A stretch of DNA of 64,000 nt, taken from positions 5,068 through 69,067 of the forward strand of contig CAYRCK010000011.1 of NCBI GenBank assembly GCA_964422745.1. The letters run 5' to 3'. The notes beneath the pieces were generated by a model. That model did not search any database. It worked only from the letters and a program-made list of their open reading frames with translations, and was not told the DNA's origin. A program made the translations under genes and the position numbers. The stretch's first letter is position 1, and each line of letters begins with the position of its first letter. Shown one piece after another: positions 30,401 through 52,722 of this stretch. Origin of the DNA: an uncultured bacterium (GTDB lineage Bacteria > Krumholzibacteriota > Krumholzibacteriia > Krumholzibacteriales > Krumholzibacteriaceae).

Positions 30401-30953
30401 CACACCGCTTTCCATAGAATTCGAATGCCGATTCCCTCAGCCTGTCGACACTGCCTCCCAGCGATAGAAAGCGAGTAACCGGCTGGGCTTTGATCTCATC
30501 AATCCGGTTGATGAACCTGTCCCAGCACTCTTCGAGCAGCATACCCCTTTCAAGATCATCGAGCTGCGAGAACAGAGGATCCACACCCGCCTCGACGGGG
30601 TGCTCCCTCAGTATCCACGACGCAAACGAGTGTATCGTTGAAATAGGGGCCCGCTCCAGCTCCTCCAGGGCTCCTGCCAGCCTTTCGCTCTCCTGAGCTC
30701 CGACCCTGCCTGACTCCAGCAGCCGCCCGATCCCGATCCTCAGGCGAATCTTCATCTCCAGGGCGGCCTTTTCGGTAAAGGTTATCGCCACGATCTGTCC
30801 GCATTCCGCCTTTCCCTCGCTTATGATGGAGATATACCTATCGACGAGAAGGGTCGTTTTGCCCGTACCAGCACCGGCTTCCATGCACAGGGAGGTGTCC
30901 AGGTCGCTTACGGCTCTGCTCCGCGCCTTCTGATCGATGATACCACCGGTCAT
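27384..30953 (-). CDS. addA: ATP-dependent helicase/nuclease AddA (UvrD-like SF1 helicase with a C-terminal PD-(D/E)xK nuclease)
   Basis: Walker A EAGAGTGKTT, UvrD helicase motifs, and the C-terminal nuclease motif GRIDLLFETENGWTAVDYKTD. It contains an acidic Gly/Asp/Ser low-complexity insert. Confidence 0.85.
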   Translation of the reverse strand: MTGGIIDQKARSRAVSDLDTSLCMEAGAGTGKTTLLVDRYISIISEGKAECGQIVAITFTEKAALEMKIRLRIGIGRLLESGRVGAQESERLAGALEELERAPISTIHSFASWILREHPVEAGVDPLFSQLDDLERGMLLEECWDRFINRIDEIKAQPVTRFLSLGGSVDRLRESAFEFYGKRCEVPGGNGASGGQPLDGRAEVESNATEETVSDAAGFCPHMESFREKIEDAAGSLHSTATSHCTDTGDLGYREIMRFYGEVQNLRMLDGVELDTNLLTIDLPRSSKGNKQNWDPEEKCAEYKRVARDLAAARDEIRKRYTDVMREGLTRWFVEFSGFVEKEKAERRVLDFDDLLLRAGALMDDPTTLEKLRKRYRYVLVDEFQDTDPVQARMIMRLAGGRGEASGYGSGRLFIVGDPKQSIYRFRKADVEIFEKTKDTFSERDSVLRISQNFRSVPGIVDWVNSAFSGIIRRPDEGRYQPDYEPIRPFREGERRAVALLDLEMDGKQPNTDSVREREGESIARLVNWLMQSGRSVRCSEHPGYRPLRYGDIAVLYPRTTGIDFYENPLRREGVPYSVEGGKLYYMRQEVRDIAAALWSIEEPWDGLALFAVLSSPVFGFSDEEIFLFSRSGGRLDYLGGKASDGDEFEDFKDAFDILRDLHRGKDKRGCASTLLELLRRTGYLELSALRPHGEQRVANIRKAVHFAREFDEGGYSFRRFASWFRDREPLGADEGDSPVTDEDAVRLLTIHKSKGLQFPVVIMANLVQKRENRIDRLLLRDGRMAFRVGAVMETSDFESFRTEERSRDEAEAARLLYVAATRAEDLLVIGRTPRRGSYFELLSRFLPDENPGDGDSENEGKAGDGVGDSGSGDKSGADAADLVDLINVSVLPSLTGKAESFTALKLYVGGRDGYGAAERERWVAERKGLIEAGSIAPVVLTPTGLEDRKTRSQSNAGGTAAEDTEELKTIRVDQLVSASAKDAGSMPGHLPGVDDVEGGRALRFGAAFHRLMELADLRSLKMPDRSVEYAAEEFGIEDRVEELATLIRSVLRSDLLVEASGARRIMRETPFTISIDSHFAAVAKAGTVPGGMIEGRIDLLFETENGWTAVDYKTDSVPAADVDRRFEMYRPQGSLYAVSLSKMGMDLNGGMVFYFVRSGQARKMEVGGGMLGYVEELLRSAVSGLPRS

Positions 30954-30957
30954 GCTT

Positions 30958-33900
30958 TCACCCTCCGGTCCGGCAACGCTTGATTGATTCCTGATATGCG
31001 CCTACACGCCTATCACCGTCGATCTTCATATCGAACAACCGGTCCCTGCCCGACGGGCAGGCGGATTTCATATCACAGTACTTACAAGTCTCCCTGTCTG
31101 GTAGGGGGAAGAACATGCACTCTTCAATGCCACCTACCAAGCAGCCGATGAGCCTCTCGAAGTCACCGCCGTCATCATCCCAAAGTTCCCCGCTGAACGT
31201 CACAAGCCTCTTCCCGCTCCCCGCTCCGACACGCCTGTACATCGCTACCCCCCTTGACACGGGAGACCCGAGCAATACAGAGGCCGCAAGAAGGTATACC
31301 GGAAGCTGAAGGGCGGCGCCTCCGGCCAGATCCTGATCCTTCATCCGGTTCAATCCACCCGTCTTGTAGTCAATGACCCTGTAGCGCCCATCACTCCGCA
31401 TGTCGATCCTGTCGATCCTGCCGTGGAAGAAGACACCGCAATCCTTCAATCCGACCGGTGCGCCGCCCACATCCCCCAAAGCTCCGAATCCGCATTCGAA
31501 GCTGTAAGGCACATAATCTTCACCCGCCCTCATCTCCTCATCCAGCATCAGCCTCACTCCGGTCATCATATTCCCCTTCTCCCAGCTCCAGAACACGGGC
31601 AGCCCGACGGGATTAGCCTTCAGGTAGCCTGAAAAAGCGCAGGATGCTGCTTCGCGGGCCATATCCAGCACCCTTTCCCTGTCCCGCTCTCTGATCGGTA
31701 GCAGCCCGGCCGCTTCCAAATCGCGATACAGTCCCGCGAGGAGTTCATGAACGATAATTCCCCTTTGCAATGGTGTTATTGAAATCAACCTCTCGGGTTC
31801 TTCGATCGATTCAATTCTAAGAATGTGCTTCAAGAAATATGAGAACGGGCATTTCGCATACGACTCCAACGATGTAGGGGAGAAACTCCGCCCCTTTTCC
31901 CCCAGAATCTTTCCGAGCTCTTCCAGCGCCCTGCCGGAGGAGAATACGCCATCGTACGGCGTAAAGGCGCGTCTTCCCCACCTAGCCATTACGAGCTCTG
32001 CACCCCTCGAAATAAAACGGTCCGCCGGTGGCAGTGAGGGACCCCCGGTTCTGCCGGACGCGAGCAGATATCGGCATTCATGGATGCTCACTGGATCAGG
32101 GGGCAGCGGACTTCCTCGGCGTGGCGGAAGCCGTTTGAATCCCAAACATCCGTCATGGTTCCCGTCAGGCGAGTAGCCTTCGACGGTCCTTAAAAACGAC
32201 GACGGTGTTAATTCCTTTCCGGTTCCCATCTCCCTTTCCGGATAACTGAGCACTACAACCTCCTCAGCCGAATTGAGCTCCAATTCGAACACGAGCTTCT
32301 CCTCATCAAGCCTATCCCCCTTAAGGGACAGCATCACCCTTCCGCCGGAGCTCCTGTTCAGGATGACCCTTTCATCATCCTTGAGAAATGGATCCTGCCT
32401 GATCCTGCCGGGCAATGCGCTCTCCGTGATTCCAGGAAGAAACACGGCTCGGAATAAAAGCCCCCTGGCCCGGCTGCTGCGCAGCACCTTGATCCCGCTT
32501 GCGCCCTCGGGCACCGATTTAACGCGTGAAGATGCAAGGACGGTCCTGACATGCCTCGAAAACGTGTCGAACGATACCGGACCGGAAATCCGGTCCAGAT
32601 CTTCGAGACGGTTGATCGCAGCGCAGGTTAGCATTGTATCCTCACATTCAACGAACAAGTCCTCCAAGCATTCCGTGAAGGTCCTCGCATAGTGCCGCCA
32701 GCCGTGCTCTCCCCCCATTGACGCCTTCGCATGTTCTATGCTTCCTATCACTTCACACATGATCACGGCCGACGCAACCGCCTCGGCACCTTCCCCGTCA
32801 CCGTCCGTCGAGGATTCAAGCCTTTCCACGAGCTCGCCGCTCTCCGCAACCCAGCCCCCCTCCCCCGTCATTCCGGCAGATGCGCTGTTCTTTATCCATA
32901 GAGAATAGGGATCGTAACTGAAATTCCAGCTTTCCGGGATCTCGAGCGGGGCGGAGGAGATAAAGTCGACGAGCTTCCACCTCTCCAGCTCGCCGCCAAC
33001 AAGTTGAAGAAGGCGTAATGCGCTTTCAGATGCGGGACTCTTTCCCGAGAGCATGGATTCATCCGCACGGTACGGGATCTCCGCCTCTCCCAGGATCTCC
33101 CTCATTAACGGCCAGTACTCGTCCCACGAATGAATAACCACCGCCACTTCGCTGAATCTGTATCCATCTTGCCGCACGAGGCCGAGAATCCTGCGCACTA
33201 TTTCGCGAACCTCTTCCTCGGCGTCGATCGCGCTGAAGAGCCTTATTTCAGCCGGGCTTCGTCCGGCTGGTTCGGACCGTACGGCATCACCGTCGGCCAA
33301 GCGGTCGGCAAGGCGTCTCAGGGTTCTTCCGGTGAATCCATCACGCCCGCCTGAGCTGCATGGAACAAAGAATATCGCCTCGTTTTTACCGGAAAGCTCC
33401 TCGATGAGCTTCCACTGAGCCTCGTTGAAGTCGTAGAATCCGTAAAAGATAAGCAGACCGCCGAGCGCCTCGTCACGGGCGAACTCTGCGGCCCTTTCAA
33501 ACCGGGAATGTATGTCACCTCCCCTTACTCCGATCACGTCCCTGAATCGTGAATAGAATGAAATCAGCTCCAGAGTCCGCTCATCCAGACCGCTCGAATG
33601 TGATTTACCGCTCATTATCCACGAGACGGCATCCGCATTACAGCCCCCTTCGGCAAGATCGGTGAAACAAGAGAGGACGGAATCTGCCGCAGTGCCGCCG
33701 CCCGAACGGTCATTAAAAAAATCCGGCGCGTATCGCGATCTGAGCAGCTCTTCTAAAATGATCCCCGATTCGAATTCCGAAAGACAGCCCGGCGCCCCCA
33801 GCAGCTTTCTACTCTCTAGAAGTGAAACAAGATCCAGTAATGTCAGGAAGTGAACATTGAGCAGCTCTCCGATGCGTCCGGCGAGCCTCTTTCTCAGTTG

Positions 33901-34050
33901 GCCGCCCAGCAGGTTGGATCCGGTGATTATGCGGATAGGGGAAAACGGGTCCACGGCTCTTCTTTTCCCGAGCAGCATTTCCATGCCGTTTTCCAGGCCG
34001 GAATAATCACCGGAGATTATCACCCTCCCAGACATACGACGCCTCGACAT
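30958..34050 (-). CDS. addB: Helicase/nuclease subunit AddB (inactive helicase-like N-terminus, C-terminal RecB-type nuclease with an Fe-S cysteine cluster)
   Basis: 1030 aa. The nuclease motif is GRIDRIDMRSDGRYRVIDYKTG, and the terminal cysteines (…C…PDRETCKYCDMKSACP) fit the AddB 4Fe-4S staple. It lies directly upstream of addA with a 4 nt gap. Confidence 0.8.
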   Translation of the reverse strand: MSRRRMSGRVIISGDYSGLENGMEMLLGKRRAVDPFSPIRIITGSNLLGGQLRKRLAGRIGELLNVHFLTLLDLVSLLESRKLLGAPGCLSEFESGIILEELLRSRYAPDFFNDRSGGGTAADSVLSCFTDLAEGGCNADAVSWIMSGKSHSSGLDERTLELISFYSRFRDVIGVRGGDIHSRFERAAEFARDEALGGLLIFYGFYDFNEAQWKLIEELSGKNEAIFFVPCSSGGRDGFTGRTLRRLADRLADGDAVRSEPAGRSPAEIRLFSAIDAEEEVREIVRRILGLVRQDGYRFSEVAVVIHSWDEYWPLMREILGEAEIPYRADESMLSGKSPASESALRLLQLVGGELERWKLVDFISSAPLEIPESWNFSYDPYSLWIKNSASAGMTGEGGWVAESGELVERLESSTDGDGEGAEAVASAVIMCEVIGSIEHAKASMGGEHGWRHYARTFTECLEDLFVECEDTMLTCAAINRLEDLDRISGPVSFDTFSRHVRTVLASSRVKSVPEGASGIKVLRSSRARGLLFRAVFLPGITESALPGRIRQDPFLKDDERVILNRSSGGRVMLSLKGDRLDEEKLVFELELNSAEEVVVLSYPEREMGTGKELTPSSFLRTVEGYSPDGNHDGCLGFKRLPPRRGSPLPPDPVSIHECRYLLASGRTGGPSLPPADRFISRGAELVMARWGRRAFTPYDGVFSSGRALEELGKILGEKGRSFSPTSLESYAKCPFSYFLKHILRIESIEEPERLISITPLQRGIIVHELLAGLYRDLEAAGLLPIRERDRERVLDMAREAASCAFSGYLKANPVGLPVFWSWEKGNMMTGVRLMLDEEMRAGEDYVPYSFECGFGALGDVGGAPVGLKDCGVFFHGRIDRIDMRSDGRYRVIDYKTGGLNRMKDQDLAGGAALQLPVYLLAASVLLGSPVSRGVAMYRRVGAGSGKRLVTFSGELWDDDGGDFERLIGCLVGGIEECMFFPLPDRETCKYCDMKSACPSGRDRLFDMKIDGDRRVGAYQESIKRCRTGG

Positions 34051-36059: not shown

Positions 36060-38240
36060 TCATGCTTTGCTCGTGGCGCGTCTCCTCATGAGCACGGCGG
36101 CAGCGAGAAGCATGGCAAGAACCAGGATCGTCACTACCGGAGCGCTGAACAGAGGTACGGGCACGGGATCCACGATATGAATCAGCTGCACGCACGTATC
36201 GTACGTATCGCCGGCCCAGGCGATGATCGTCAGCGTATCATAATCGCAGGTCTCGGCCAGGGACGCGTCGACCTCACCGTATATCGTCGCACACTCTCCG
36301 CCCGGAACGTCGGTCGCCTGACCGGCCTGGTTCATCGGGGCTCCTACGTGACCCTTGCTCGTGATCAGGAAATCATAGGTCGTAGGAGGAGCGCACGGGT
36401 CGCCGTTGCAGATATCGAACGGCACGAACGCTGGGCTGGCACCCTCCTCGATGTAGAATATGCTGTCCTGAATGATCTCGAGCGCCGGGGGCGCCGGGAC
36501 AACATGCAGGTATAGTGTATCGACATCGTATCCTGCAACGTCCGAGATACAGTCAGGAGAATGCGTGCAATCGCCATCCGGATCACAGTACGAGATGTAC
36601 AAGTAGACCGTATCCCAGTCGCAGACCTCGGCATCGCACGGGGCCTCGACAGTGACCGTCCAGTAGCCGAAGCAGCCGTCTTCTATAAAGAAACAGTCGT
36701 CGAGTTCTCCGCCTACCGTCCATCCCTGGTTCGAGTGCATCCAGAGGCAGGCCGTGTCACCAGGCAGCCCGGCACAGACAGCGATTTGGTCGAATGTGAG
36801 TACCTGTCCGGCGTAGATGTCGGCGTAGTCGCCCAGATCGAGAGGAGGACCGTAAAGCTCGATGGAGCCGTCCTTGATGCAATCCCCTTCCTCCTGCTCG
36901 GGACCCACCCTCAACCGGATACCCACATCACCCATCGCATAACCACCATTATCCAGAGCAGCCCAGGAGGCTCCTGTGCTGCTTACATATGTCTTGTTTG
37001 TCTCCATCGGTCCGCCGTCGTCCATCGGAACCGGATAATTGTAACCCGGTGTCTGGAAATTGATCGTCGGGTAGATCGTGTCCCCCGCGCTTACCGGCAG
37101 GGGGGTCGTCAACGGGATGCTGTAGTAGCCGGCCTCGTTGAATGTGCCGGTCAACGGTCCGGCGAGGATGTTCGTCGGCATTGTTGAACCGTCGAAATCA
37201 TCGTAGATCCAAGCGGTGTAAGTCGTAGGACCTGAAGGAGCCCAGGTAATTATCTCATATACATACTCGTTATCCGCCTGCATCACGTACTGCGCCAGTC
37301 CCCAGTCGTCCGTATCACCGTAGCCGACCGAAGACCACCATCCCCAATCGTCCCAGTAATAGATGGTTTCGTTCGGATCGTATTCCTTGTACTCGGTTAT
37401 GACGTTCGTGTACTCGCCGATGCGGGCATTCTCGTACTGGATGTAGAAGTAGCCGAGTATCCCCCAGCCCGTGCCCCAGGAGTTCTTGCATATCCAGGCA
37501 CCGGCACCGCCGCATTCGTCATCGTCCCATCCGACGATGAGGACGGCGTGGTTCGGATCATCGGTCCCGGTGTAGGTCAGGCACTGCGGCGTACCGTTGT
37601 AGGAGTTGAACGCGGGGAAACCGGCATACAGTGATGTGTAGCAGGGTCCATAGTTCTGTACCGCGTTCTGGATCGCGGGAACATTGTTAGGTATGACTCT
37701 CCACTCTATCACCTGCTCGAAGAAGCTGCATGCGGGATTGACGCATGTAGGGGTCGGACAGCCGCCGGGGTAAGTATCGCATGATTCATCGACCGATCCG
37801 AGCAGCGCCAGATAGTTTGTGGACATCCAAGCGTTTCCACCTGCGTTGCAGTTGGTGTTAGTCGGGTTGCATGCCTGTATGTTGAGCTCGGATAGATCCT
37901 TTGTGATCGATTCATCTATAATGATCTGAGATTCGAGGTTGCCAAGAGCAGCGAAGCACCAGCAAGTCCCGTAGGGATTCTGATTCTTCACCGGTGTCAC
38001 CCCCCCCAACGCACGCCAGTCCCACGTTGAAAGAGGCGCCTGAAGCGTTGAAAGGTAAAGCTGAGTGGGCACAAGGTGGTCCAGGTTCATTGGAGGAGCA
38101 ATAAATCCGTAGTTCTCCTCTGGCGATTCCCATGTAGTCTTAGGCGCTTTGCTGATCGTCTGCGCTATGCTGATCTCTCCTGCCGCCGACAAAAGCGCTA
38201 TGACAGTTACAAGCAGAACCGACAATTTTACATATTTCAT
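36060..38240 (-). CDS. Secreted papain-family (C1A) cysteine peptidase with a long C-terminal extension and a C-terminal TM/Arg-rich anchor-like tail
   Basis: Signal peptide MKYVKLSVLLVTVIALLSAAGE. Catalytic Cys in QNPYGTCWCFAALG, His in NHAVLIVGWDDD and Asn/Trp in NSWGTGWG. The last 34 aa are VPVPLFSAPVVTILVLAMLLAAAVLMRRRATSKA. Confidence 0.8.
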   Translation of the reverse strand: MKYVKLSVLLVTVIALLSAAGEISIAQTISKAPKTTWESPEENYGFIAPPMNLDHLVPTQLYLSTLQAPLSTWDWRALGGVTPVKNQNPYGTCWCFAALGNLESQIIIDESITKDLSELNIQACNPTNTNCNAGGNAWMSTNYLALLGSVDESCDTYPGGCPTPTCVNPACSFFEQVIEWRVIPNNVPAIQNAVQNYGPCYTSLYAGFPAFNSYNGTPQCLTYTGTDDPNHAVLIVGWDDDECGGAGAWICKNSWGTGWGILGYFYIQYENARIGEYTNVITEYKEYDPNETIYYWDDWGWWSSVGYGDTDDWGLAQYVMQADNEYVYEIITWAPSGPTTYTAWIYDDFDGSTMPTNILAGPLTGTFNEAGYYSIPLTTPLPVSAGDTIYPTINFQTPGYNYPVPMDDGGPMETNKTYVSSTGASWAALDNGGYAMGDVGIRLRVGPEQEEGDCIKDGSIELYGPPLDLGDYADIYAGQVLTFDQIAVCAGLPGDTACLWMHSNQGWTVGGELDDCFFIEDGCFGYWTVTVEAPCDAEVCDWDTVYLYISYCDPDGDCTHSPDCISDVAGYDVDTLYLHVVPAPPALEIIQDSIFYIEEGASPAFVPFDICNGDPCAPPTTYDFLITSKGHVGAPMNQAGQATDVPGGECATIYGEVDASLAETCDYDTLTIIAWAGDTYDTCVQLIHIVDPVPVPLFSAPVVTILVLAMLLAAAVLMRRRATSKA

Positions 38241-42204: not shown

Positions 42205-44640
42205 TCAGCTCTTTGCTGCGATCTCCTGCCTCATCGCGATGAGAACCGCCAGCGAGATCGAGGCCAGCTTCGAACGGGCCGAATCCCCCCTGGACGTCAG
42301 TATTATAGGAACGCCCCCGCCTACAACCGCACCGGCCAGGTTGGCGCCCGAGGAAACGGTCAGGGTCTTGTATACGACATTCCCGGCTTCTATATCGGGC
42401 ATGAGCAGGATATCGGCGTTTCCACTAATCTTTCCCGTGTAATGCTTCTCCTCGGCCGAGCGTGGATCCAACGCCACATCGAGCGACAGCGGACCCTCCA
42501 CTATGCAGTCCGTGCGGTCGCGGTACCCCTCCGCAAACTCTCCCGCCAGTATGGAGGACTGCACACTTGGATTCCTGGTCTCCACGGCGGAGATAACCGC
42601 GACCTTAGGCGTTTTTATATTGAGGTAACCGGCCACGGCAAGAGCATTCTCCAGGATCAACTTCTTCAACTCCTGATCGGGATGAGGCGTCACGGCCGCA
42701 TCGGTCACTATGAGCAGCTTGGGATACGCCGGAAACTGGAAAACTCCGACATGACTGTATACCTTTCCCTTCTCGAGCCGTCCGCTGCTCTTCATATAAC
42801 GCAGGGCGCCTCTCATGATCTCATCCGTTTTCACTCCACCCTTCATCAGAAGATCGACCTGGCCCGAATCAAGGAGCTCTATCGCCTTCTCAACTGGTTT
42901 GTCGGTATCGATGATCATGTAATTTTCATCGTCGACCTTGATGTCGTACTCCCACGCCAGCTTGTTCACTTCGTAGAAATCGCCCACGAGCAGGAATTTC
43001 GCTATAGGATACCTTCCCTCCTCGTTGGCCTGTTTGGCGGCGGCGACGGCATCCTCGTTCTCGGCTCCGACCAAAGCTATCCGGGGGGCCCTGTGCATGG
43101 CGACGAGGGACCTGGCCGCGTAGATAACCTCATCGAGGCTCGTGATGGGCTCGTTCTCCTTCTTGCGAAGATGGGGATGCGCGAATATTTCAGTATCCAG
43201 AAACTCCTTCTCACCCGCCCGCTTCTTCCTCAGGGCGTCCCGCTCGACCCTGTAGTCCTTCAATTCCTCACGGAGAAACCGCGCCCTCATGTGCCCGGCT
43301 ATCATGGACTCGTGCTCCACGGAGCCCGGAACGACGGCCACCGGGAAATAAGGATAAAGCTTGCGTCTTATAATCCCGGAGAACTCGGTGCTCTTGGACA
43401 GACCTCCGGTCAATATCACGGCATCGATCGCACCCTCTACGGCGGCCAGCTTCATTACCTCCCCGGCGATATTGCGGGCCAGAAAGTCCACGACAACCTT
43501 GATCTTCTCCCGCTGCCTCTGAACCGCCCCCGTATCCATGAAATGCATCAGGGCGCGGAAATCGTTAGTGCCGGCCAAGTCGACAAGCCCCCCTTCTCCG
43601 AACAGGTACCTACTGAGCTCCTGTAGGGTCAGTTTCCTGCTGTCCAATGCTCTCATCAGGCAGTCGAGAGGAATGTTGCCGCACCTGTTCGCGCTGGGCA
43701 CCCCGGAGAAGGCGTTCACTATATCGACTATCTCCCCGTTCTTATGCCTGCCTATGGAGATGCCCCCCCCTATGTGAGCGCTCACTGTAGTGATCTCATC
43801 ACGCTCGTAGCCGAGCAGGTGGCAGAAGAGCCCGTGAACAGCCCTGTGGTTCAGATAGTGGGCCCCCGCCCCGTCTCTCAGAATCTTCCTTATACCGGTC
43901 AATCTGGCCGTGATCTCCATCTCGTCCGTTGCGACCGGATCGCTCATCGTTATCAGCAGATCTCCCCCTCCGGCGAGCCTCTCTCCGAGCTTCAATCCAA
44001 TCGGGATCGCCATGTTGGATGCATGATCGATCCTCGGTTCCTCGAGATCCTTCACCATCTCGTCACAGACCTCGTAAGTGCCGGACGGCACCGGTTGGAC
44101 AAAGCCGCCGCGGCACACTATTCCGGTTAGCCCCCCGGGGACTATACCACGCTCGTCGATCCACTCCACTATAGCCTTTGTTCTGTTCTCGACACCGTCG
44201 TCGAAATCAGGAGGAATATGAACCTCGTCGGCCGCTTCGAGTTCGAAGCCCCTGAAAAGCGCCAGCTTCGTAGAAGTCGATCCGGGATTCACGCACAGCA
44301 CCAGCTCCGATTCCGCCTCTTCGGGGATCTTCTCCCTTCCGTACAGGGCCGAGATGATCCTTCGTGTACCGCTCTTCGATGACATTATGAGTTGGATCAG
44401 GTGCGAGAACAGGTTCCCCCACGCCTCTTCCCAGTCGGAGGACAGGATGGGCGGCCTGGAGGAACTCACAACGGACCTAAGAAGCTCGAACAACTCCTCC
44501 TCCGTTGCGGCCTTGCCGTAATGAACAGAGTTAACGGCCTCCGCTACTTCACGCTCGATATCATTCGATCCGCCTATGCCGCGTATCACCCGAAGCAGTG
44601 CATTCAATTGTGATTCTGCGATTCTGAGCTGGTCTTCCAA
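42205..44640 (-). CDS. Fused butyrate kinase (Buk) and phosphate butyryltransferase (Ptb), with an N-terminal domain of about 115 aa of unknown function
   Basis: Residues about 120-480 carry ASKHA/Buk motifs (LVLCVNPGSTSTKLALF, SAHIGGGISIG, ILTGGLSKS). Residues about 500-811 form the PTA_PTB family (MIIDTDKPVEKAIELLDSGQVDLLMKGG ... AVISAVETRN ... GNADILLMPDIEAGNVVYK). One continuous 811 aa frame has no internal stop. Confidence 0.8.
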   Translation of the reverse strand: MEDQLRIAESQLNALLRVIRGIGGSNDIEREVAEAVNSVHYGKAATEEELFELLRSVVSSSRPPILSSDWEEAWGNLFSHLIQLIMSSKSGTRRIISALYGREKIPEEAESELVLCVNPGSTSTKLALFRGFELEAADEVHIPPDFDDGVENRTKAIVEWIDERGIVPGGLTGIVCRGGFVQPVPSGTYEVCDEMVKDLEEPRIDHASNMAIPIGLKLGERLAGGGDLLITMSDPVATDEMEITARLTGIRKILRDGAGAHYLNHRAVHGLFCHLLGYERDEITTVSAHIGGGISIGRHKNGEIVDIVNAFSGVPSANRCGNIPLDCLMRALDSRKLTLQELSRYLFGEGGLVDLAGTNDFRALMHFMDTGAVQRQREKIKVVVDFLARNIAGEVMKLAAVEGAIDAVILTGGLSKSTEFSGIIRRKLYPYFPVAVVPGSVEHESMIAGHMRARFLREELKDYRVERDALRKKRAGEKEFLDTEIFAHPHLRKKENEPITSLDEVIYAARSLVAMHRAPRIALVGAENEDAVAAAKQANEEGRYPIAKFLLVGDFYEVNKLAWEYDIKVDDENYMIIDTDKPVEKAIELLDSGQVDLLMKGGVKTDEIMRGALRYMKSSGRLEKGKVYSHVGVFQFPAYPKLLIVTDAAVTPHPDQELKKLILENALAVAGYLNIKTPKVAVISAVETRNPSVQSSILAGEFAEGYRDRTDCIVEGPLSLDVALDPRSAEEKHYTGKISGNADILLMPDIEAGNVVYKTLTVSSGANLAGAVVGGGVPIILTSRGDSARSKLASISLAVLIAMRQEIAAKS

Positions 44641-44925: not shown

Positions 44926-46089
44926 TCATCGGTTCCGGTCCTGCAGCAGAGGAAGTATCCCACGGCGGTAATTTGAGATCATATCCTGTGTGTAGTGCTC
45001 CAGCCTCTCTTTCTCCGGTCCCGATAAATAAATCCTCATATCCCTGAGATCCGAGTCTTCGATCGAGCTGTCTCCCAAGAATACGCCGCCGAGGGCTCCT
45101 CCATAGCCGCTCTGCTCTATCCCCTTACCTGCCAGTTCGGCCCAGAGAAGGGTCCAGCTCTTTGTAACATCCTGCTGGTTGTAACCACCGCCGCCAAGGG
45201 CCACTATCGCCGGAAATTCCCCGTGCAGGATCTCCACGGCCTCGATATAACCGTTATTCGTCAACCTGAGATGTGTAAGGGGATCAGTGGAGAGCATGTC
45301 GGTGCCGAACTGACCGACTATAACCTCGGGGTCGAAGATCCGAAGCGCATCCATAACGATATCATTGAACAGACGTAGAAAGTTATCGTCATCGGTGCCC
45401 GGCTCGAGCGGCACGTTGATGTTATAACCCATTGCATCCCCCTCACCAACCTCCCAATCGAATCCGCCCCAGGGGAAGAGTGTCTTGCCTGACTCGTGCA
45501 TCGAGACGGTCAGAACCGATCTATCGCCGAAATACGCATGCTGGACGGCATCTCCATGGTGGGCGTCTATATCGACATACGCGACCCTTCTGCCCCTCTT
45601 CCTCAACTCGTCTATGGCGATGGCAACATCGTTAACGTAGCAAAATCCCGCCGCCCTGTCCGGGTAGGCATGATGAAAACCGCCGCACGGGTTGAACGCG
45701 CTTCCGCCCGAATCAGCAACGAGCCTGGCCGCGGTCAGGCTCGCGGTGGCTGAAAGGGCCGAAAACTCGAAGACGCCCTCGAACACTGGATTCTCCGCGG
45801 GTCCTATACCGTGGTGGATCATATCGAGGTCCACATCATCGCCCCTGTCCGCCCTTCTCAGCGCCTCGATGTAATCCTTTGTATGAAACCGTTCGAGCAC
45901 ACGATCCTCTGCATTCTCGATCTCGACGACGCTTATGCCTGCGCCGTCGAGCAGACCTCTCCTTCTGCACATTTCGTACACGGATGTCTGCCTGTCCGGC
46001 CTGAACGGATGCTCCTGACTGAACTGGAACTCGCCGCACCTTCTGGCTATCACGAATGAGGCCTTCGCACCCGATGGTCGGTCATCCAT
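44926..46089 (-). CDS. Histone-deacetylase-superfamily protein (AcuC / acetoin-utilisation-type lysine deacetylase)
   Basis: HDAC motifs GGFHHAYPDRAAGFCYVNDVAIAI, DIDAHHGDAVQHAYF and GGGGY. The start is set at MDDRPSG, whose ATG overlaps the stop of the upstream CoAT-GNAT gene by 1 nt. Confidence 0.8.
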   Translation of the reverse strand: MDDRPSGAKASFVIARRCGEFQFSQEHPFRPDRQTSVYEMCRRRGLLDGAGISVVEIENAEDRVLERFHTKDYIEALRRADRGDDVDLDMIHHGIGPAENPVFEGVFEFSALSATASLTAARLVADSGGSAFNPCGGFHHAYPDRAAGFCYVNDVAIAIDELRKRGRRVAYVDIDAHHGDAVQHAYFGDRSVLTVSMHESGKTLFPWGGFDWEVGEGDAMGYNINVPLEPGTDDDNFLRLFNDIVMDALRIFDPEVIVGQFGTDMLSTDPLTHLRLTNNGYIEAVEILHGEFPAIVALGGGGYNQQDVTKSWTLLWAELAGKGIEQSGYGGALGGVFLGDSSIEDSDLRDMRIYLSGPEKERLEHYTQDMISNYRRGILPLLQDRNR

Positions 46090-47951
46090 CACTTCTTCTC
46101 CGAGAAATCGACTCTCACGATATATACTCCGTCCTCCAACCTGCTGTGCAGCGGATAACCGCACTCGTGAAAAACGTGCATCATCTTCTTGTTCTGTCCC
46201 AGAACATCGGCCTTGAACCCCCTGATCCCCATCTCCAGCGCTATATCGATCAAATGTTGCATGAGATGTGTTCCGATACCACGGTTCTGCCAGTTGTCCC
46301 CGACGAGAAACGCAACCTCCGCGTAGTTGTCCGACGGATCGTGCTTGAACCTCCCGATCGCTACTATCTCCTCGTTTTCCGGCTCCCCCAGCAATCCAAC
46401 GATCGCCATCTCCTCACTGTAATCGATGTTCACCATCGGCTGGATCTTCTCGTGCGGCATGGCCTTTACGAGATTGAAGAAACGATAGTAGACGCTCTCG
46501 TCGCTCAAAGAATAGAAGAACTCGCGCTCCATCGCCTCGTCGATGGGCTTTATGGGCCTGAAGAATACGCTGACATCACCGAAATCCTTCACATGCTCGT
46601 ATTTCTCAGGGTAGAAACGGCCGACCTCCGTCAACGGCATCTGGTCCATATGAACGATATTTCTCTTCTTGGCATAGCTGAGAAGATCGTCCCTGAAATC
46701 CGGGTGCGTAATGCTGATGAGAGCGAGGGCCCTCTCCCTGAGGTTCTTTCCATGAAGGTTCGCAATTCCGTACTCGGTGACTATGTAGTGCACATCCCCC
46801 CTTGACGTCACGACCCCGGCACCCTGGTCCAGGTGCGCGACGATCCGTGAGATGGTCCCTCCCTTAGCCGTGGACGGAAGGACTATGATCGGTTTTCCGC
46901 CCTTCGACCGCGCCGCGCCGCGCACGAAATCGACCTGCCCCCCTATACCCGAGTAAAAATACTCACCGATCGAATCGGCGCACACCTGACCGGTGAGATC
47001 GACCTGCATGGCGGCATTGATGGAGATCATCTTGTCGTTCCTGGAGATTATGAATGGATCGTTCGTATAGTCGCAGGGATGGAACTCGATCAGGGGATTA
47101 TCGTCGACGAAATCGTATAGCCTTTTCGTGCCCATGCAGAACGTGGCGATGATCTTGCCGTTGTGAATGCTCTTCTTCCTGTTATTTATGACCCCGGACT
47201 CGACCAGGTCTATTATCCCGTCGGAGAACATCTCTGTATGGATTCCTATATCCTTCTTGTCAACGAGGAACGAAAGTATCGCATTCGGGATCATGCCTAT
47301 CCCGGCCTGGATCGTCGCTCCATCACCTATCAATCTCGATACATGCTGCCCTATCCTGGCGGCCACATCATCCGGTTCGGGTGGCGACAAAGTGAGAAGC
47401 GGCATGTCGCTTTCCACTATATGGTCGATGTCCTTGACGTGGATGAAGCAATCTCCAAGGGTCCTGGGCATCTGCTTGTTGACCTCGGCGATGACCAGCC
47501 TTGCGCTCTCGGCACCCGCCTTCACGACATCGACCGAGACTCCGAGGGAGCAGAAGCCGTAGCTGTCCGGGGGTGCCACCTGTATGAAGGCGACATCGAT
47601 CTTGAGGCGCCCCGATCGCAGCAGTGCCGGCAATTCGGAGAGGAATATCGGAGTGTACTCCGCCCTTCCCTCGTTGACAGCATCCCTCACATTCTGTCCT
47701 ATGAAGAACGCGTTCTGCCTGAACGGCTTGCTCAGCACCGACTCGGCGTACGGGCTCGTTCCCAGCTCTATGAGATTGATCGTCTCGTGATCCTGGATGT
47801 ATTTGCCCTTATCGATGAGCATCTTGATCAGTGTTTGGGGTTCGGCCGCGCCGGAGCCGATGAAGATACGGCTGCCGGGATTGATAAGCTTGAAGACCTC
47901 GTCCACGGTGCATTTCTTTCGCTCGTATATATCATTAACCTTTTCAATCAT
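46089..47951 (-). CDS. Fusion of a 4-hydroxybutyrate/butyryl-CoA:acetate CoA-transferase-family domain to a C-terminal GNAT N-acetyltransferase
   Basis: The N-terminal 440 aa or so are co-linear with the Cat2/AbfT CoA-transferase family (GSGAAEPQTL ... GIGMIPNAIL ... MGTKRLYDF ... SGIGGQVDFVRGA ... VTEYGIA). The C-terminal 170 aa or so form a GNAT fold with the acetyl-CoA motif A (QNRGIGTHLMQHLID). Confidence 0.8.
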   Translation of the reverse strand: MIEKVNDIYERKKCTVDEVFKLINPGSRIFIGSGAAEPQTLIKMLIDKGKYIQDHETINLIELGTSPYAESVLSKPFRQNAFFIGQNVRDAVNEGRAEYTPIFLSELPALLRSGRLKIDVAFIQVAPPDSYGFCSLGVSVDVVKAGAESARLVIAEVNKQMPRTLGDCFIHVKDIDHIVESDMPLLTLSPPEPDDVAARIGQHVSRLIGDGATIQAGIGMIPNAILSFLVDKKDIGIHTEMFSDGIIDLVESGVINNRKKSIHNGKIIATFCMGTKRLYDFVDDNPLIEFHPCDYTNDPFIISRNDKMISINAAMQVDLTGQVCADSIGEYFYSGIGGQVDFVRGAARSKGGKPIIVLPSTAKGGTISRIVAHLDQGAGVVTSRGDVHYIVTEYGIANLHGKNLRERALALISITHPDFRDDLLSYAKKRNIVHMDQMPLTEVGRFYPEKYEHVKDFGDVSVFFRPIKPIDEAMEREFFYSLSDESVYYRFFNLVKAMPHEKIQPMVNIDYSEEMAIVGLLGEPENEEIVAIGRFKHDPSDNYAEVAFLVGDNWQNRGIGTHLMQHLIDIALEMGIRGFKADVLGQNKKMMHVFHECGYPLHSRLEDGVYIVRVDFSEKK

Positions 47952-48215
47952 CGTACACCCCCTGAGCGGTTCATATACCCCGATTCCGGCACGGTTTCGA
48001 TCACGAAAGGATAATGATCCAACGATGAAGATAGTTCAAGAGAAGAGAGCATGCAAATCTTGATCTGGCAAAAACTATACGATTCAATTAGATTAGCGAA
48101 GAGGACGGATCGCCGGTATGGCGCGAAGAACCGGACACCGCGCTCCGTGATCCCCTCGGAAGGGCCGTGTGCTCCTTTTTTCCGTTTTATCAACGCATCT
48201 CGAAAGGATCGTGAT

Positions 48216-49145
48216 TTGGAAAGGATTTTCGGACCGGTGCCGTCGAGACGGCTGGGCAGGTCGCTCGGCATAGACGTGGTTCCATACAAAACTTGTACAT
48301 TCGACTGCATCTACTGCGAATGCGGGGGCACGACGAACAGAACATGCAGCCGAAGCGAATTCTATCCCCTCGACGATATACTCGAAGAACTGGAGGGAAG
48401 GCTCTCCGAGATCCCGCAGATGCCCGATGTGGTAACCCTGTCGGGAGCGGGCGAGCCGACATTGTACTCGAGAACGGGAGAGCTGATAAGGCGGGTGAAG
48501 GGGGTGACCGGCATCCCTGTGGCCGTCATCACGAACAGCTCTCTCCTGTCCCGCCCCGAGCTCAGGGAAGAGGTGTCGTTCGCCGACATCGTTCTGCCGT
48601 CACTTGACTCCGTCATCGAGGAGACCTTCTCTTCGATGAACCGTCCGCACGAGGAATGCGACATAGGCGAGATACAGGCAGGACTCGAGGAATTCACACG
48701 GGTGTACACGGGAAAGGTCTACCTGGAAATAATGCTTCTGGAGGGATTCAATACGGATGAGAGAAACCTGTCTGAGCTGAAACTTGCCATCGAGGGGCTG
48801 AGGGTCGACGAGGTGCAGCTCAACACGGCCGTAAGGCCCGGGACGGTAAAGGGCATCGGGCCGCTGGACAAAGAGAGCCTGATAAGCATAAAAGAATACT
48901 TCGGCTCCGCATGCGAGGTTGTCGCCGAAACACCTGCCAGGGCCTCACACGAGGACCTCGCAGCCGAGCAGAAAGTCATCTCGATGCTGGAACGGCGTCC
49001 GTGCACGGCAGAGGATATGCACAACTCACTCGGGATCCCCGTCCCCGGGCTCGCCAAGCTGCTCTCGGAGCTGGTCTCGAGAGGAACGATAAAGGCCGAA
49101 TCCCACGGCGGGAAGATATTCTACACGGCGATAATTCGTGGATGA
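48216..49145 (+). CDS. Radical SAM protein (CX3CX2C; COG0731-like, function unknown)
   Basis: The motif KTCTFDCIYCEC follows the N-terminal signature FGPVPSRRLGRSLGIDVVP. The start is tentatively the TTG at 48216, with AAAGGA seven nt upstream. The ORF track begins at an ATG at 48051, probably too far upstream. Confidence 0.65.
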   Translation: MERIFGPVPSRRLGRSLGIDVVPYKTCTFDCIYCECGGTTNRTCSRSEFYPLDDILEELEGRLSEIPQMPDVVTLSGAGEPTLYSRTGELIRRVKGVTGIPVAVITNSSLLSRPELREEVSFADIVLPSLDSVIEETFSSMNRPHEECDIGEIQAGLEEFTRVYTGKVYLEIMLLEGFNTDERNLSELKLAIEGLRVDEVQLNTAVRPGTVKGIGPLDKESLISIKEYFGSACEVVAETPARASHEDLAAEQKVISMLERRPCTAEDMHNSLGIPVPGLAKLLSELVSRGTIKAESHGGKIFYTAIIRG

Positions 49146-49219: not shown

Positions 49220-50467
49220 TTACATGCTCCACTTGAGCCTTTTCGCCGCAATCAGCAAAAATACAACCCCGAACGCTAGTAGCGCGGCGATGTGAGGTAC
49301 TACGCCGGTCAATCCGAATCCGAACGATATCAGCTTATGAATCCCGCTTATCGCCCAGCCGGTGGGGAAGAAGAAGGCCAGCACCTGAAACGGCCTGGAA
49401 ACGACCTCCAAGGGCCACCAACACCCTCCGAGCGCAGACATAACCAGGGTAGTAATGACGGCGAATCCGGTTACCTGGTCGGGATTTTTCAGTAGAGAGG
49501 CGAATAGGATGGAAAACGAGCCCGTGCAGAAGGCGAAGGCCAGCATAAGCAGGAACAGGGCTATCGGACTGCCCCCAAGCGAAATCCGAAAGAGGAGCCT
49601 GCCCGCGGCCAGCAGGAATACTATCTGAATCATGGCTATCTCTACCCTGCCCAGCAGCTTGCCGGAGACGACCTCCGCCCTGCCCGCAGGGGTTGTGCCC
49701 AGTCTCTTCAGAACGCCCGTCACCCTCTCCGCCGTGATACCCGCTCCGCTGAAAACCATCGACATGAGCACGAACATGATCAGGCTTCCCGGCACGGAGC
49801 CCTGGAAACCCCTTGGAATATCCGCCGCCCTGCCGGCGTTACCTGACCGCACGGTCACCAGAGGATCTCTCGCCATGATCGTGTCCAACCGCACCTGCAG
49901 TGTCTCGAGAGCCCCGATACGCCCGCCGGAGAGTTTCCAGAGGCTTCCACTCAGGCTGTCGCCATCGATGGAGATACCCGCCGCGCCATGCTCCAGCTCA
50001 TCGCCCTCGATTTCTATGAGCCCGCTCACCACCCTGATGAGACCTTTGAATATGGAAGCCGAAGCGGCCTCGGCGGCGTTCATATTCGTCCCCTCCTCCC
50101 TGCTCAGCACAAGCCCGACGCGCTCCCTATCCAGAACAGACCTGGTGAATTCCCCCGGTATCACGAGGGTTCTGACCGCATCGTCGCCTTCCGGCAGGCT
50201 GTCGACTATGTAAAGCGACTCGTCTTCGAGCGCCTCGACCAGCTTGCCGGACAGAAAACCGCTGTCCCTGTCCTCCACTGTCAGTCTCGCCCTGACCGCA
50301 GAGCTTCGCGAATCCCTCGAGGTCATACCGAAGACGAACATGAATGTGAGCGGCATTATGAACATCCAGAAAACATAGCTGCGCTCCTTCATTGTCATCC
50401 TCAGATCACAGCCCGCTATCTTCGACACTATCCAGAGAGATCCGCCGCGCATCCTAGGACCACCCAC
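49220..50467 (-). CDS. ABC-2 type transporter permease
   Basis: Polytopic membrane protein with the ABC-2 layout (one N-terminal TM segment, an extracytoplasmic loop, a cluster of 5 TM segments). It overlaps the upstream permease gene, so its start is uncertain. Confidence 0.7.
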   Translation of the reverse strand: MGGPRMRGGSLWIVSKIAGCDLRMTMKERSYVFWMFIMPLTFMFVFGMTSRDSRSSAVRARLTVEDRDSGFLSGKLVEALEDESLYIVDSLPEGDDAVRTLVIPGEFTRSVLDRERVGLVLSREEGTNMNAAEAASASIFKGLIRVVSGLIEIEGDELEHGAAGISIDGDSLSGSLWKLSGGRIGALETLQVRLDTIMARDPLVTVRSGNAGRAADIPRGFQGSVPGSLIMFVLMSMVFSGAGITAERVTGVLKRLGTTPAGRAEVVSGKLLGRVEIAMIQIVFLLAAGRLLFRISLGGSPIALFLLMLAFAFCTGSFSILFASLLKNPDQVTGFAVITTLVMSALGGCWWPLEVVSRPFQVLAFFFPTGWAISGIHKLISFGFGLTGVVPHIAALLAFGVVFLLIAAKRLKWSM

Positions 50468-51710
50468 CCTTCTCTATCCTCCGCCTGAGCATGATGGTCC
50501 CCGGAATGATCGTAATCGCCGATACACCGAATAGTATTCCGAGGTGCTCGAGGATATCACCCATGGCGGCATCCAGGATGAAGATCCGCTTGAAGCCGTC
50601 GACGGCCCAGAAGACCGGAGAGAAACGCCCTACCGCAGATAGTGCGCTCCCCATCTGTTCAATCGGGATCATGCTCCCCCCGAGCAGGCACATTACTATG
50701 ATCACTATGGAGATCACTGCGTCCACAGCCTTTTCCGATCTTATGAAGCCGTAGAAGAAAACGATGATACCGGTGCACATCAGAATAGTCGCGACGAAAT
50801 GGATTATGAGCGGGAGCGGCCGTCCCAGATCGATTCCGAATCCCAGGCGCCCTATCACCATGAGAATGATGCATGAGAGACCGGTTACCGCCGCTGTTAC
50901 AAGCACCTTGGCCGTCACAACCTGCCTGGCATCGATAGGAGCCACGAACATCCTCGCAAGCGTCCCGTTGTTCCTCTCCCTGAACAAATCCCTCAATGAT
51001 ATTTCGCTTATGAAAAGGAGCCCTATCAGCAGACTGCCCGGTAAAACGTACGCGAACAGATTGAATCCCCCATCCCCCTCATCCTGCGATGCAACGGTCT
51101 CGCTTCTCAGCGTGATCAGGGAGTCGCTCAAATATCCCTGTGCCAGCAAGATCTTGTCCCTTGCGCTGTCCAGCAGCCCCTGAAGCTCACCGCCCGAGGG
51201 CCATGCCTCGGCTTCGAGCATAGACCGAACCCGCTCTATCGGTTCCCTGAAGTTATACATCCCCCCGTGGATTATTATGGCCATCGTCTCCACTATCTCT
51301 TCGACTATAATCGGCAGGAAAGTCTCCGCCGGGTTCTTGACCAGCACTATCTCCGCGCTCTTCATGTCCAGGACACTCTCTGAGAATCCTTCGGGAACCT
51401 CTATAAGCGCCGAGGCCTTGCCTCTCTCCATGCGGCGCATCCCCTCTTCCATCTCCACGCTTTCCAGATCAATGAGCTCGGCCAACCGGTCCTGCCTCAT
51501 CGAGTCCCGGATGAACCTGCCGAATATGCCCCCGTCCCTGTCCACCAGCAGCACCTTGATCCTGGGCAACTCCACCGTTCCCGATCTGCCGAAGACAAGG
51601 CCGATGATAAGCGTCATGGCAAGGGGAATGAGCATCATGAGCAGCACGGCGACAGGGCTGCGCATCCTGCGCCTGAGATCCTTCAATACTATATTAAAGA
51701 GATTATGCAC
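50454..51710 (-). CDS. ABC-2 type transporter permease (paralog)
   Basis: Same architecture as the neighbouring permease. Confidence 0.7.
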   Translation of the reverse strand: MHNLFNIVLKDLRRRMRSPVAVLLMMLIPLAMTLIIGLVFGRSGTVELPRIKVLLVDRDGGIFGRFIRDSMRQDRLAELIDLESVEMEEGMRRMERGKASALIEVPEGFSESVLDMKSAEIVLVKNPAETFLPIIVEEIVETMAIIIHGGMYNFREPIERVRSMLEAEAWPSGGELQGLLDSARDKILLAQGYLSDSLITLRSETVASQDEGDGGFNLFAYVLPGSLLIGLLFISEISLRDLFRERNNGTLARMFVAPIDARQVVTAKVLVTAAVTGLSCIILMVIGRLGFGIDLGRPLPLIIHFVATILMCTGIIVFFYGFIRSEKAVDAVISIVIIVMCLLGGSMIPIEQMGSALSAVGRFSPVFWAVDGFKRIFILDAAMGDILEHLGILFGVSAITIIPGTIMLRRRIEKGGWS

Positions 51711-51804
51711 CCTCCACCGACCTTCCGGGTCCTCTGCGCCGAATTCGGAACCGAACTGGGAACAGGCACGGCGATTAATCGTACGGAGACCGCCACCCCG
51801 CCCG

Positions 51805-52722
51805 TCAGTCCCTGAGCTCCCTCCCCGTGAGCTTTATGAAAACGCTTTCAAGGCTCGGTTCCTTGATCGACACCTGACCTACGTGAACCCCTGCGGAAAA
51901 AAGTTTCCCGAATACCTCTCCTATCTCTCCCTTGTTCGAAACGAAAAACCTTAGTGAATCGTCCTCCAGGCTGTCCACCTTGACTCCCGACAGCAGTTGA
52001 TTCACCTGCTCCGCGCTGAAGTTGCCGGTGACCGTCACGATATCCTCCTCACCAACGAGGCGTGTCAGCTCCTCCAGGGATCCCTCCGCCAGTATGCTGC
52101 CGTGATCTATTATCGCTACCCGGTCACACAGGCTCTCGGCCTCCTCGAGGTAGTGGGTCGTGTAGATAACGGTCGTGCCCGAAGCGACCTCGTTCTTGAT
52201 TATATCGAGTATATTCAATCTCGCCTGAGGATCTATTCCCAGTGTCGGCTCATCCAGCAGCACGATGCGAGGATGGTGGACGAGACCGATGCAGAGATTG
52301 ATCCTTCGTTTCATACCGCCCGAATATTGACGAACGGGATCGTCCGCTCTCTCCGTCAGCTCCACGAGATCGAGCACCCGATCGACCGATTTCCTGAGCT
52401 CCTTTCCCGACATCCCGTACAGGCTCCCCCAGAATCGCAAGTTCTCCCGCCCGGTCAGCTCCTCGTAAAGCGCTATCTCCTGTGGGATCACGCCCAGGAT
52501 CCTGCGGATCTTCTTCCCGTGCCGGTGAACGTCCATCCCGTTCACCTGCACGGTCCCCGAATCGGCACGCATGAGCCCCGATATAATGGAGATAGCCGTT
52601 GTCTTCCCCGCCCCGTTCGGACCCAGGAAACCGAAGATCTCGCCCTCCTTGACCTGGAATGCTATACCGCTCAATGCGACCACGCTGCCGAACGATTTTC
52701 TTATATCATGAACCTCGATCAT
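51805..52722 (-). CDS. ABC transporter ATP-binding protein (ABC-2 exporter ATPase)
   Basis: Walker A GPNGAGKTT, ABC signature YSGGMKRR and Walker B VLLDEPTLGID. Confidence 0.85.
   Translation of the reverse strand: MIEVHDIRKSFGSVVALSGIAFQVKEGEIFGFLGPNGAGKTTAISIISGLMRADSGTVQVNGMDVHRHGKKIRRILGVIPQEIALYEELTGRENLRFWGSLYGMSGKELRKSVDRVLDLVELTERADDPVRQYSGGMKRRINLCIGLVHHPRIVLLDEPTLGIDPQARLNILDIIKNEVASGTTVIYTTHYLEEAESLCDRVAIIDHGSILAEGSLEELTRLVGEEDIVTVTGNFSAEQVNQLLSGVKVDSLEDDSLRFFVSNKGEIGEVFGKLFSAGVHVGQVSIKEPSLESVFIKLTGRELRD

Follow-up and report, generated by a model that had tools for sequence, protein, structure and literature searches.

A CoA-transferase fused to a Pat-type GNAT domain and encoded with an HDAC-type deacetylase: a candidate reversible lysine-acylation pair of uncultured bacteria and archaea

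In a 64,000-nucleotide stretch of DNA from an uncultured bacterium of the Krumholzibacteriaceae (Krumholzibacteriota; GenBank assembly GCA_964422745.1, contig CAYRCK010000011.1, positions 5,068 to 69,067 of the forward strand; hereafter the window), one gene encodes a 620-residue protein in which a family-I coenzyme A (CoA)-transferase module is joined to a C-terminal GNAT acetyltransferase domain, and this gene overlaps that of a class-I, HDAC-type deacetylase (Table 1). Since the genes of a Pat-type writer and of an eraser of the class-I HDAC type stand together here among those of carboxylate-activating enzymes, we take the two proteins to acylate and deacylate, reversibly, the lysines of enzymes in short-chain acyl-CoA metabolism, an interpretation that we favour with moderate confidence. 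It is best read as an architectural variant of the Pat/AcuA-AcuC system for carboxylate-activating enzymes, in which an intact CoA-transferase takes the place of the dead synthetase-like domain of Pat.

The 620-residue protein would, we infer, be a Pat-class protein-lysine acyltransferase (the writer), and the HDLP/AcuC-like zinc deacetylase from the overlapping gene would be the eraser, the pair controlling the enzymes by which short-chain carboxylates are converted to their CoA or phosphate esters and back. Where an AMP-forming acetyl-CoA synthetase (Acs) is encoded nearby, it would be the target, at its conserved C-terminal lysine, whereas in the Krumholzibacteriota lineage the target is plausibly the neighbouring butyrate kinase-phosphate butyryltransferase fusion (Buk-Ptb) or an unlinked synthetase. 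The CoA-transferase half would bind and turn over acyl-CoA and, if the two halves communicate, would gate the GNAT domain by the acyl-CoA/carboxylate balance, supply it with the acyl donor, or both; it could instead be merely a co-localised activity.

Table 1. Features of the locus, with positions in the window, strand and basis of the assignment
Feature	Position	Strand	Basis and remarks
Fusion gene: family-I CoA-transferase module and Pat-type GNAT	46089..47951	-	620 aa; open reading frame, Pfam, NCBIfam, matching public gene call
CoA-transferase module, AbfT/Cat1-type, complete	46653..47927	-	aa 9-433; phmmer against PDB
Codon of Glu240, predicted catalytic glutamate (= AbfT Glu238)	47232..47234	-	HTEMF motif alignment
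Pat-type GNAT domain with N-terminal extension	46104..46616	-	aa 446-616; PDB matches, NCBIfam
GNAT catalytic strand AEVAF (Glu545) to motif A QNRGIG (555-560)	46272..46319	-	alignment with Pat structures
Stop/start overlap GTGATG of fusion gene and deacetylase gene	46087..46092	-	sequence
Class-I (HDLP/AcuC-like) Zn-dependent deacetylase	44926..46089	-	387 aa; Hist_deacetyl 2.9e-77
Butyrate kinase::phosphate butyryltransferase fusion (Buk-Ptb)	42205..44640	-	811 aa; NCBIfam

The fusion protein and its overlapping deacetylase gene

The reading frame of the fusion gene contains neither a stop nor a frameshift, and public gene calls for the same contig gave matching products of 620, 387 and 811 residues for the fusion, the deacetylase and Buk-Ptb. 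The domain composition given in the preliminary description, which had been made from the sequence alone, was recovered by Pfam search: AcetylCoA_hydro (residues 18-182, E = 2e-30), AcetylCoA_hyd_C (residues 274-427, E = 1e-69) and Acetyltransf_1 (residues 518-599, E = 1.6e-12) on the 620-residue protein, the last of these within the final 170 residues or so where a GNAT domain had been proposed, and Hist_deacetyl on the 387-residue protein. On the minus strand the junction of the two genes reads AAG-TGA-TGG, in which the TGA stop of the fusion gene shares its A with the ATG of the deacetylase gene at 46089, so that the 1-nt overlap described earlier, and with it the observation of a fusion gene overlapping a deacetylase gene, was confirmed. 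A GTG codon (46092) stands directly before this ATG and makes a 4-nt GTGA overlap equally possible for the deacetylase start; this 4-nt form was the commonest in relatives of the gene pair, and most of the 47 loci with an HDAC gene after the fusion showed a stop/start overlap of -1, -4, -17 or -20 nt. A promoter and terminator scan of 42.0-48.4 kb gave nothing above chance, with no sigma-70-like promoter or terminator between the genes, and an Rfam scan of the same interval found no element between the genes and no riboswitch.

Judged by its closest relatives, the C-terminal part of the fusion is specifically Pat-like, including the extension that precedes the GNAT domain. Its best match in PDB was full-length Pat (9it0/9isq; 2e-21, residues 709-880 of the 9it0 chain), followed by the GNAT of Streptomyces lividans PatA (4nxy, 8e-21), M. 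smegmatis Pat (4orf, 4e-12) and M. tuberculosis Pat (4ava, 2e-8), and Sulfolobus Pat (3f8k) was also among the matches; the NCBIfam model of mycobacterial Pat (NF058543) gave 1.5e-22 over residues 460-615. The homology to Pat took in the pre-GNAT segment (YP..E, FRPI.P.DE and YYRFF), and the GNAT domain is fused at the same point relative to its extension as in Pat. The AEVAF strand, which carries the general-base Glu545, aligned with AEVAF/AEFAV of the Pat structures, and the acyl-CoA-binding motif A noted previously was present as QNRGIG. Conservation was followed by aligning 67 full-length fusions, taken from the verified loci described below, to the protein of the window (68 sequences in all); residue 545 was Glu in 57, Asp in 10 and Gln in one, and Q555, G558, G560 and N587 were kept in 66-68 of the 68. 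Pfam detected no NDP-forming acyl-CoA-synthetase-like domain (CoA_binding_2, Succ_CoA_lig or ATP-grasp_5) N-terminal to the GNAT domain, and therefore the fusion is not a member of type I or II Pat.

The N-terminal module aligned end to end with the solved 4-hydroxybutyrate CoA-transferases 9vag (7e-147, chain residues 3-425), 3eh7 (2e-134), 2oas and 3gk7 (6e-124), which place it by homology in the Cat1/AbfT subgroup of the family-I CoA-transferases. Its HTEMF motif aligned with the same motif of the solved enzymes and thereby located the predicted catalytic residue, Glu240, which corresponds to E238, the active-site residue of the AbfT structure 3GK7 (PMC11659651). Glu240 and His238 were each present in 68/68 fusions; in the QxGhG loop (residues 215-219) position 215 was Gln in 58 and Glu in 10, with G217 and G219 in all 68, and in GIGGQxDFxRG (residues 335-345) G335, G337, G338, D341 and R344 were likewise found in every sequence. 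The CoA-transferase half looks enzymatically active, because Glu240 is kept throughout the phyla together with the QxGhG loop and the GGQ motif, and because the domain scored 494 bits against a solved stand-alone enzyme. A dead CoA-transferase domain, considered as a candidate, was rejected in view of the invariant catalytic residues of the 68 sequences. The preliminary description had asked whether the catalytic Glu is retained, which would separate an enzyme from a sensor; its retention points to an enzyme and leaves the sensor doubtful. The proposed sensing of butyryl-CoA found no direct support: the NCBIfam equivalog for butyryl-CoA:acetate CoA-transferase, TIGR03948, gave 319 bits against a cut-off of 675, the genes linked to the fusion elsewhere are those of acetate enzymes, Acs and ADP-forming acetyl-CoA synthetase (ACD), not of butyrate enzymes, and it is only the Buk-Ptb neighbour in this lineage that speaks for a 'butyryl' specificity.

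About 12 residues (434-445) lie between the two homology regions, and the linker residues D436, Q437, Y447 and P448 were invariant in the 67 further full-length copies, all from other genomes. An AlphaFold2 model of the whole chain, made with 64 homologues, had a mean predicted local distance difference test score (pLDDT) of 82.9 and a predicted template-modelling score (pTM) of 0.80; because of this pTM for the whole chain and the short linker, the model suggests that the two domains hold a defined, fixed arrangement. The only segment of the model with pLDDT below 50 was that of residues 63-98 in the CoA-transferase module (window 47658-47765, minus strand), which is highly conserved (F77, N80, A81, F83, G85, R89, G95, R96 and Y99-P101) and may contribute to an interface or a mobile region of the module.

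For the deacetylase, the closest solved relative was Aquifex aeolicus HDLP (1c3r, 5e-63), followed by eukaryotic HDAC1, 2, 3 and 8, and the active-site set was complete, with the dyad His139-His140, the zinc ligands Asp175, His177 and Asp264, and Tyr303 in the GGGGY motif. The Aquifex enzyme and Bacillus subtilis AcuC are listed together among the class I bacterial deacetylases, and AcuC is the eraser for acetyl-CoA synthetase (Graf et al., PMC11532494). The class-I sequence affinity and the synteny reported below suggest that the present enzyme would deacetylate acetyl-lysine on Acs-type substrates.

Distribution and gene neighbourhood of the fusion

The preliminary description had asked how rare the fusion is, and it proved not to be rare. 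Among 5.8 billion proteins, more than 120 full-length matches with 57-82% identity and all three Pfam domains were found, their sources including Krumholzibacteriota, Latescibacterota and Gemmatimonadota, and a second search seeded with an archaeal copy again returned more than 120 full-length fusions, all derived from metagenome-assembled genomes (MAGs) and generically named; across both searches, more than 200 full-length homologues carried the three domains. Genomes were scanned, one per GTDB species, with query residues 318-620, which span the junction, giving 520 matches confirmed by tblastn; this number is an upper bound, as two of the six search patterns sit in the CoA-transferase part. 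Fusions were verified for the best 80 of the 520 loci, all of which cover the junction, and tblastn of the full protein on the retrieved loci confirmed full-length in-frame fusions. At least 80 species-level genomes thus carry the fusion, from about ten bacterial phyla (Krumholzibacteriota, Latescibacterota, Planctomycetota, Verrucomicrobiota, Bacteroidota, Sumerlaeota, Acidobacteriota, Chloroflexota, 'Deltaproteobacteria' and Armatimonadota) and from archaea (Thermoplasmata/Methanomassiliicoccales). On one Thermoplasmata contig a gene for a trimethylamine methyltransferase (MTTB) lies near the fusion (L052:2355-4226, minus strand), which fits a genuine methylotrophic Methanomassiliicoccales host and therefore supports the archaeal occurrence of the fusion.

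When the GNAT part was searched against an exhaustive 50%-identity library, 12,172 relatives were obtained, and about 42 of the 150 best cluster representatives were proteins of 585-665 residues with a C-terminal GNAT. In databases the fusion is named 'GNAT family N-acetyltransferase' or 'acyl-CoA hydrolase/GNAT superfamily N-acetyltransferase', and sometimes '4-hydroxybutyrate CoA transferase'. The fusion thus proved widespread, but only occasionally annotated as a plain CoA-transferase, the two outcomes that the preliminary description had named together as speaking against a special architecture; the names are mostly those of a GNAT or of an acyl-CoA hydrolase/GNAT. The fusion is real, old and widespread, and the copy in the window is an ordinary member of a large family.

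Among the 80 loci, 36 belonged to Krumholzibacteriota and Latescibacterota, where the gene order was as in the window: a divergent radical-SAM gene, then the fusion, HDAC, Buk-Ptb and SppA genes in that order. The HDAC gene directly followed the fusion in 35/36, Buk-Ptb was found downstream in 28/36, and the radical-SAM gene, divergent from the fusion, in 22/36. The pairing of writer and eraser noted earlier recurs in unrelated phyla: in the 44 loci from other phyla, the same HDAC subfamily occurred in 12, directly downstream in 11, together with ACD in 16 (usually directly upstream, with an intact SHTGSLAG histidine motif), Acs in 11, an MFS transporter in six and a Buk-Ptb fusion in one. All 11 Acs proteins carried the PxxxxGK lysine motif (PKTRSGKIMRR in 10 and PRTKTGKLVRR in locus L076), and at least one of HDAC, ACD, Acs and Buk-Ptb was encoded in 25/44 of these loci. 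Some Planctomycetota loci had the order ACD, fusion, HDAC, then MFS, Acs and a DcaP-type porin on the opposite strand, which looks like an island for carboxylate uptake and activation.

In the window, the 811-residue Buk-Ptb matched the NCBIfam models of butyrate kinase (residues 112-463, 246 bits, over the cut-off) and phosphate butyryltransferase (residues 502-804), and its N-terminal extension of about 110 residues, which had no Pfam match, was conserved from residue 1 in Krumholzibacteriota relatives. An 818-residue counterpart lies directly upstream of the CoA-transferase-GNAT gene in the deltaproteobacterial locus L076. As a downstream neighbour conserved in this lineage, Buk-Ptb may belong to the module or be its target.

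An intact ACD gene was found directly upstream of the fusion in L054, L056, L058, L059, L062, L068, L070, L073, L074, L078 and L079. Such loci could have represented a split type I Pat, the upstream protein of about 700 residues serving in trans as the inactive synthetase-like domain, but this candidate was rejected: the SHTGSLAG phosphohistidine motif is kept, as in a normal ACD. It is conceivable, though speculative, that neighbourhoods of this kind were the birthplace of ACD-GNAT (Pat) fusions, because type I Pat has a degenerate member of the ACD family as its regulatory domain. In two Phycisphaerae loci (L037:7077-13061 and L041:7077-16094), two paralogous CoA-transferase-GNAT genes, about 50% identical, flank an ACD gene, and in a Phycisphaerales locus (L078:8929-10050) the HDAC gene downstream of the fusion was recovered by tblastn in three frames, possibly as a pseudogene or through sequencing error.

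Further genes of the window were recorded as context. The radical-SAM protein divergent from the fusion gene (48051-49145, plus strand) showed a weak C-terminal TrmB-like winged-helix match, and an ABC-2 type exporter with two permease genes and an ATPase (49220-52722, minus strand) also lies close by in a number of Krumholzibacteriota relatives. An AddAB-like helicase-nuclease pair (UvrD helicase and PD-(D/E)XK; 27384-34050, minus strand) and a 726-residue papain-family C1 peptidase with a lectin-like domain (36060-38240, minus strand) are ordinary context.

Known acylation systems and rival explanations

A 2021 review of bacterial lysine acetylation distinguishes five writer architectures: ACD-like + GNAT; GNAT + ACD-like; a cAMP-binding, ACT or NADP-binding domain + GNAT; GNAT alone; and tandem GNAT (PMC8556138). 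A CoA-transferase partner is absent from this classification and is not mentioned in a 2024 census of bacterial deacylases, and full-text literature searches for a CoA-transferase-GNAT fusion returned nothing relevant, in agreement with the preliminary description, which knew of no such architecture. The nearest counterpart is Pat/PatZ (YfiQ) of Salmonella enterica and E. coli (9it0, 9isq). In both proteins a Pat-type GNAT, with matching pre-GNAT extension, catalytic-Glu strand and motif A, stands at the C-terminus, the large N-terminal module derives from a family of enzymes that handle acyl-CoA, and there is a link to the control of acyl-CoA synthetases. However, the N-terminal module is a 430-residue family-I CoA-transferase here and a 700-residue NDP-forming acyl-CoA-synthetase-like domain there; its catalytic residue is kept here, whereas the domain of type I/II Pat has no catalytic histidine and is an acetyl-CoA-binding regulator (PMC8556138); and the eraser is of HDAC type from an overlapping gene, whereas that of Pat is the unlinked sirtuin CobB. 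The fusion is thus not a type I Pat, though it probably works like one.

The acsA-acuABC genes of B. subtilis resemble the present locus in that the genes of a GNAT writer and of a class-I eraser of HDAC type lie together (PMC11532494) and, with respect to many of the loci from other phyla, in the adjoining Acs with the conserved RSGKIMR lysine. AcuA, however, is a stand-alone GNAT of a different subtype that gave no match when the GNAT domain was searched against PDB; here AcuB is missing, the writer carries a CoA-transferase, and the neighbour in the window is Buk-Ptb, not Acs. Writers of type III (mycobacterial cAMP-Pat 4ava/4orf, ACT-GNAT and the NADP-binding MxKat) have an N-terminal metabolite-binding module before a homologous Pat-type GNAT, as in the fusion, but their modules are small ligand-binding domains without catalysis (PMC8556138), in place of which a complete enzyme is found here. 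With the AbfT/Cat1-family CoA-transferases (3gk7, 3eh7 and 9vag) there is full-length homology (E = 1e-124 to 1e-147), including the catalytic Glu, QxGhG and GxGGQ, whereas the solved enzymes have 434-450 residues and no GNAT. A precedent in trans is known from E. coli, where the CoA-transferase YdiF makes lactyl-CoA, the GNAT YiaC uses it and CobB erases the mark (PMC9636275). The order of events would be the same, a CoA-transferase making the donor, a GNAT writing on lysine and a deacylase erasing; yet the three E. coli proteins are separate and unlinked, whereas here the first two steps would share one polypeptide, and the E. coli set consists of a CoA-transferase from another subfamily (YdiF), a minimal GNAT (YiaC) and a sirtuin (CobB).

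Among the alternatives to a reversible lysine-acylation pair, the one to be taken most seriously, although we consider it rather unlikely, is that the fusion is a metabolic enzyme, a butyryl-/4-hydroxybutyryl-/acetyl-CoA:carboxylate CoA-transferase of fermentation that serves as an alternative to Buk-Ptb and whose GNAT domain only autoregulates the transferase, by acetylating the protein itself or a partner subunit, and is no general Pat. The CoA-transferase half is complete, with an invariant active site, and as close to solved enzymes as many orthologues are, its gene lies beside those of Buk-Ptb, ACD and Acs, which are alternative routes of the same carboxylate/acyl-CoA interconversion, and some databases name it accordingly; on the other hand, the GNAT domain belongs to the Pat subtype, in which the characterised proteins modify other enzymes by acetylation, a dedicated deacetylase gene is overlapping or adjacent in several phyla, and Acs genes with the canonical target lysine are found nearby. 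A metabolic role of this kind does not exclude the acylation pair. The version of the preliminary description, a pure sensor whose CoA-transferase half would bind acyl-CoA or CoA without turnover and activate the GNAT domain allosterically, seems to us improbable: Glu240, Q/E215-x-G-x-G and GGQ-D-F-R-G are invariant in 68 bacterial and archaeal sequences, as expected of an active enzyme and unlike the His-less type I Pat, and there is no sign of butyryl specificity, although type I/II Pat, whose large domain binds acetyl-CoA and is needed for activity (PMC8556138), provides an analogy, and the fusion point is shared with Pat.

Many GNATs and bacterial HDAC-family enzymes act on small molecules (PMC11532494), and the GNAT domain also gave weak matches to phosphinothricin/ArsN-type acetyltransferases, so that it might acetylate a polyamine, an amino acid or an antibiotic-like compound, with the HDAC as an acetylpolyamine or acetoin-type amidohydrolase. 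We regard this as very unlikely, as protein acetyltransferases make up all of the top GNAT relatives, their E-values surpassing those of the small-molecule enzymes by 10-15 orders of magnitude, the HDAC falls with class I/HDLP and not with ApaH-type polyamine deacetylases, and the fusion is linked to Acs genes with the acetyl-lysine motif. That faulty sequencing or assembly, or a recent frameshift, ran two genes together has practically no probability left: the same in-frame fusion with conserved linker residues recurs in 80 independent genomes and more than 200 protein clusters, and the in-frame junction was kept in all 67 further full-length copies, which settles in favour of a true fusion the question of mis-joined genes raised earlier.

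Several points nevertheless weigh against the lysine-acylation pair. Specificity for a protein or for a small molecule cannot be read from the sequence of a GNAT domain; the CoA-transferase module scored under every NCBIfam equivalog cut-off; in 19/44 loci outside the Krumholzibacteriota and Latescibacterota, all of the linked genes were absent within 8 kb; the carriers found are uncultured MAGs throughout; and tblastn of the window gave no Acs, ACD or MFS homologue, which makes the target in this organism a guess.

Implications for metabolic control by protein acylation

The textbook case of metabolic control by bacterial protein acylation is the reversible lysine acetylation that Pat/CobB or AcuA/AcuC bring about on acyl-CoA synthetases. 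That general principle is already established; what stands out here is an accessory domain that appears to be a live enzyme, and the spread of the architecture over bacteria and archaea. The architecture is often met in uncultured anaerobes, such as Krumholzibacteriota, Planctomycetota and Chloroflexota, and in methanogenic Thermoplasmata. It lies outside the five described writer types, and it alone has an accessory module that looks like a working enzyme from the very pathway under regulation.

A bolder proposal, which we put forward tentatively and hold to be possible but doubtful, is that Bacteria and Archaea share a sixth class of lysine acyltransferase, formed by these proteins, with a functional CoA-transferase coupled to a Pat GNAT and with the HDAC of the overlapping gene resetting the mark. 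The state of Glu240, free or as CoA-thioester, might report the ratio of acyl-CoA to free carboxylate and gate the GNAT domain; alternatively, the transferase might turn incoming acetate, butyrate or 4-hydroxybutyrate into acyl-CoA for the adjacent GNAT, in which case the type of lysine acylation would report which acid is present.

If the two halves communicate, the fusion would provide a direct link from the carboxylate/acyl-CoA pool to the state of protein acylation, and, if the reading as a writer-eraser pair is true, the pairing of HDAC-type erasers with Pat-type writers would extend to archaea. Hundreds of database entries that are now named only 'GNAT family N-acetyltransferase' or 'acyl-CoA hydrolase' could be re-annotated.

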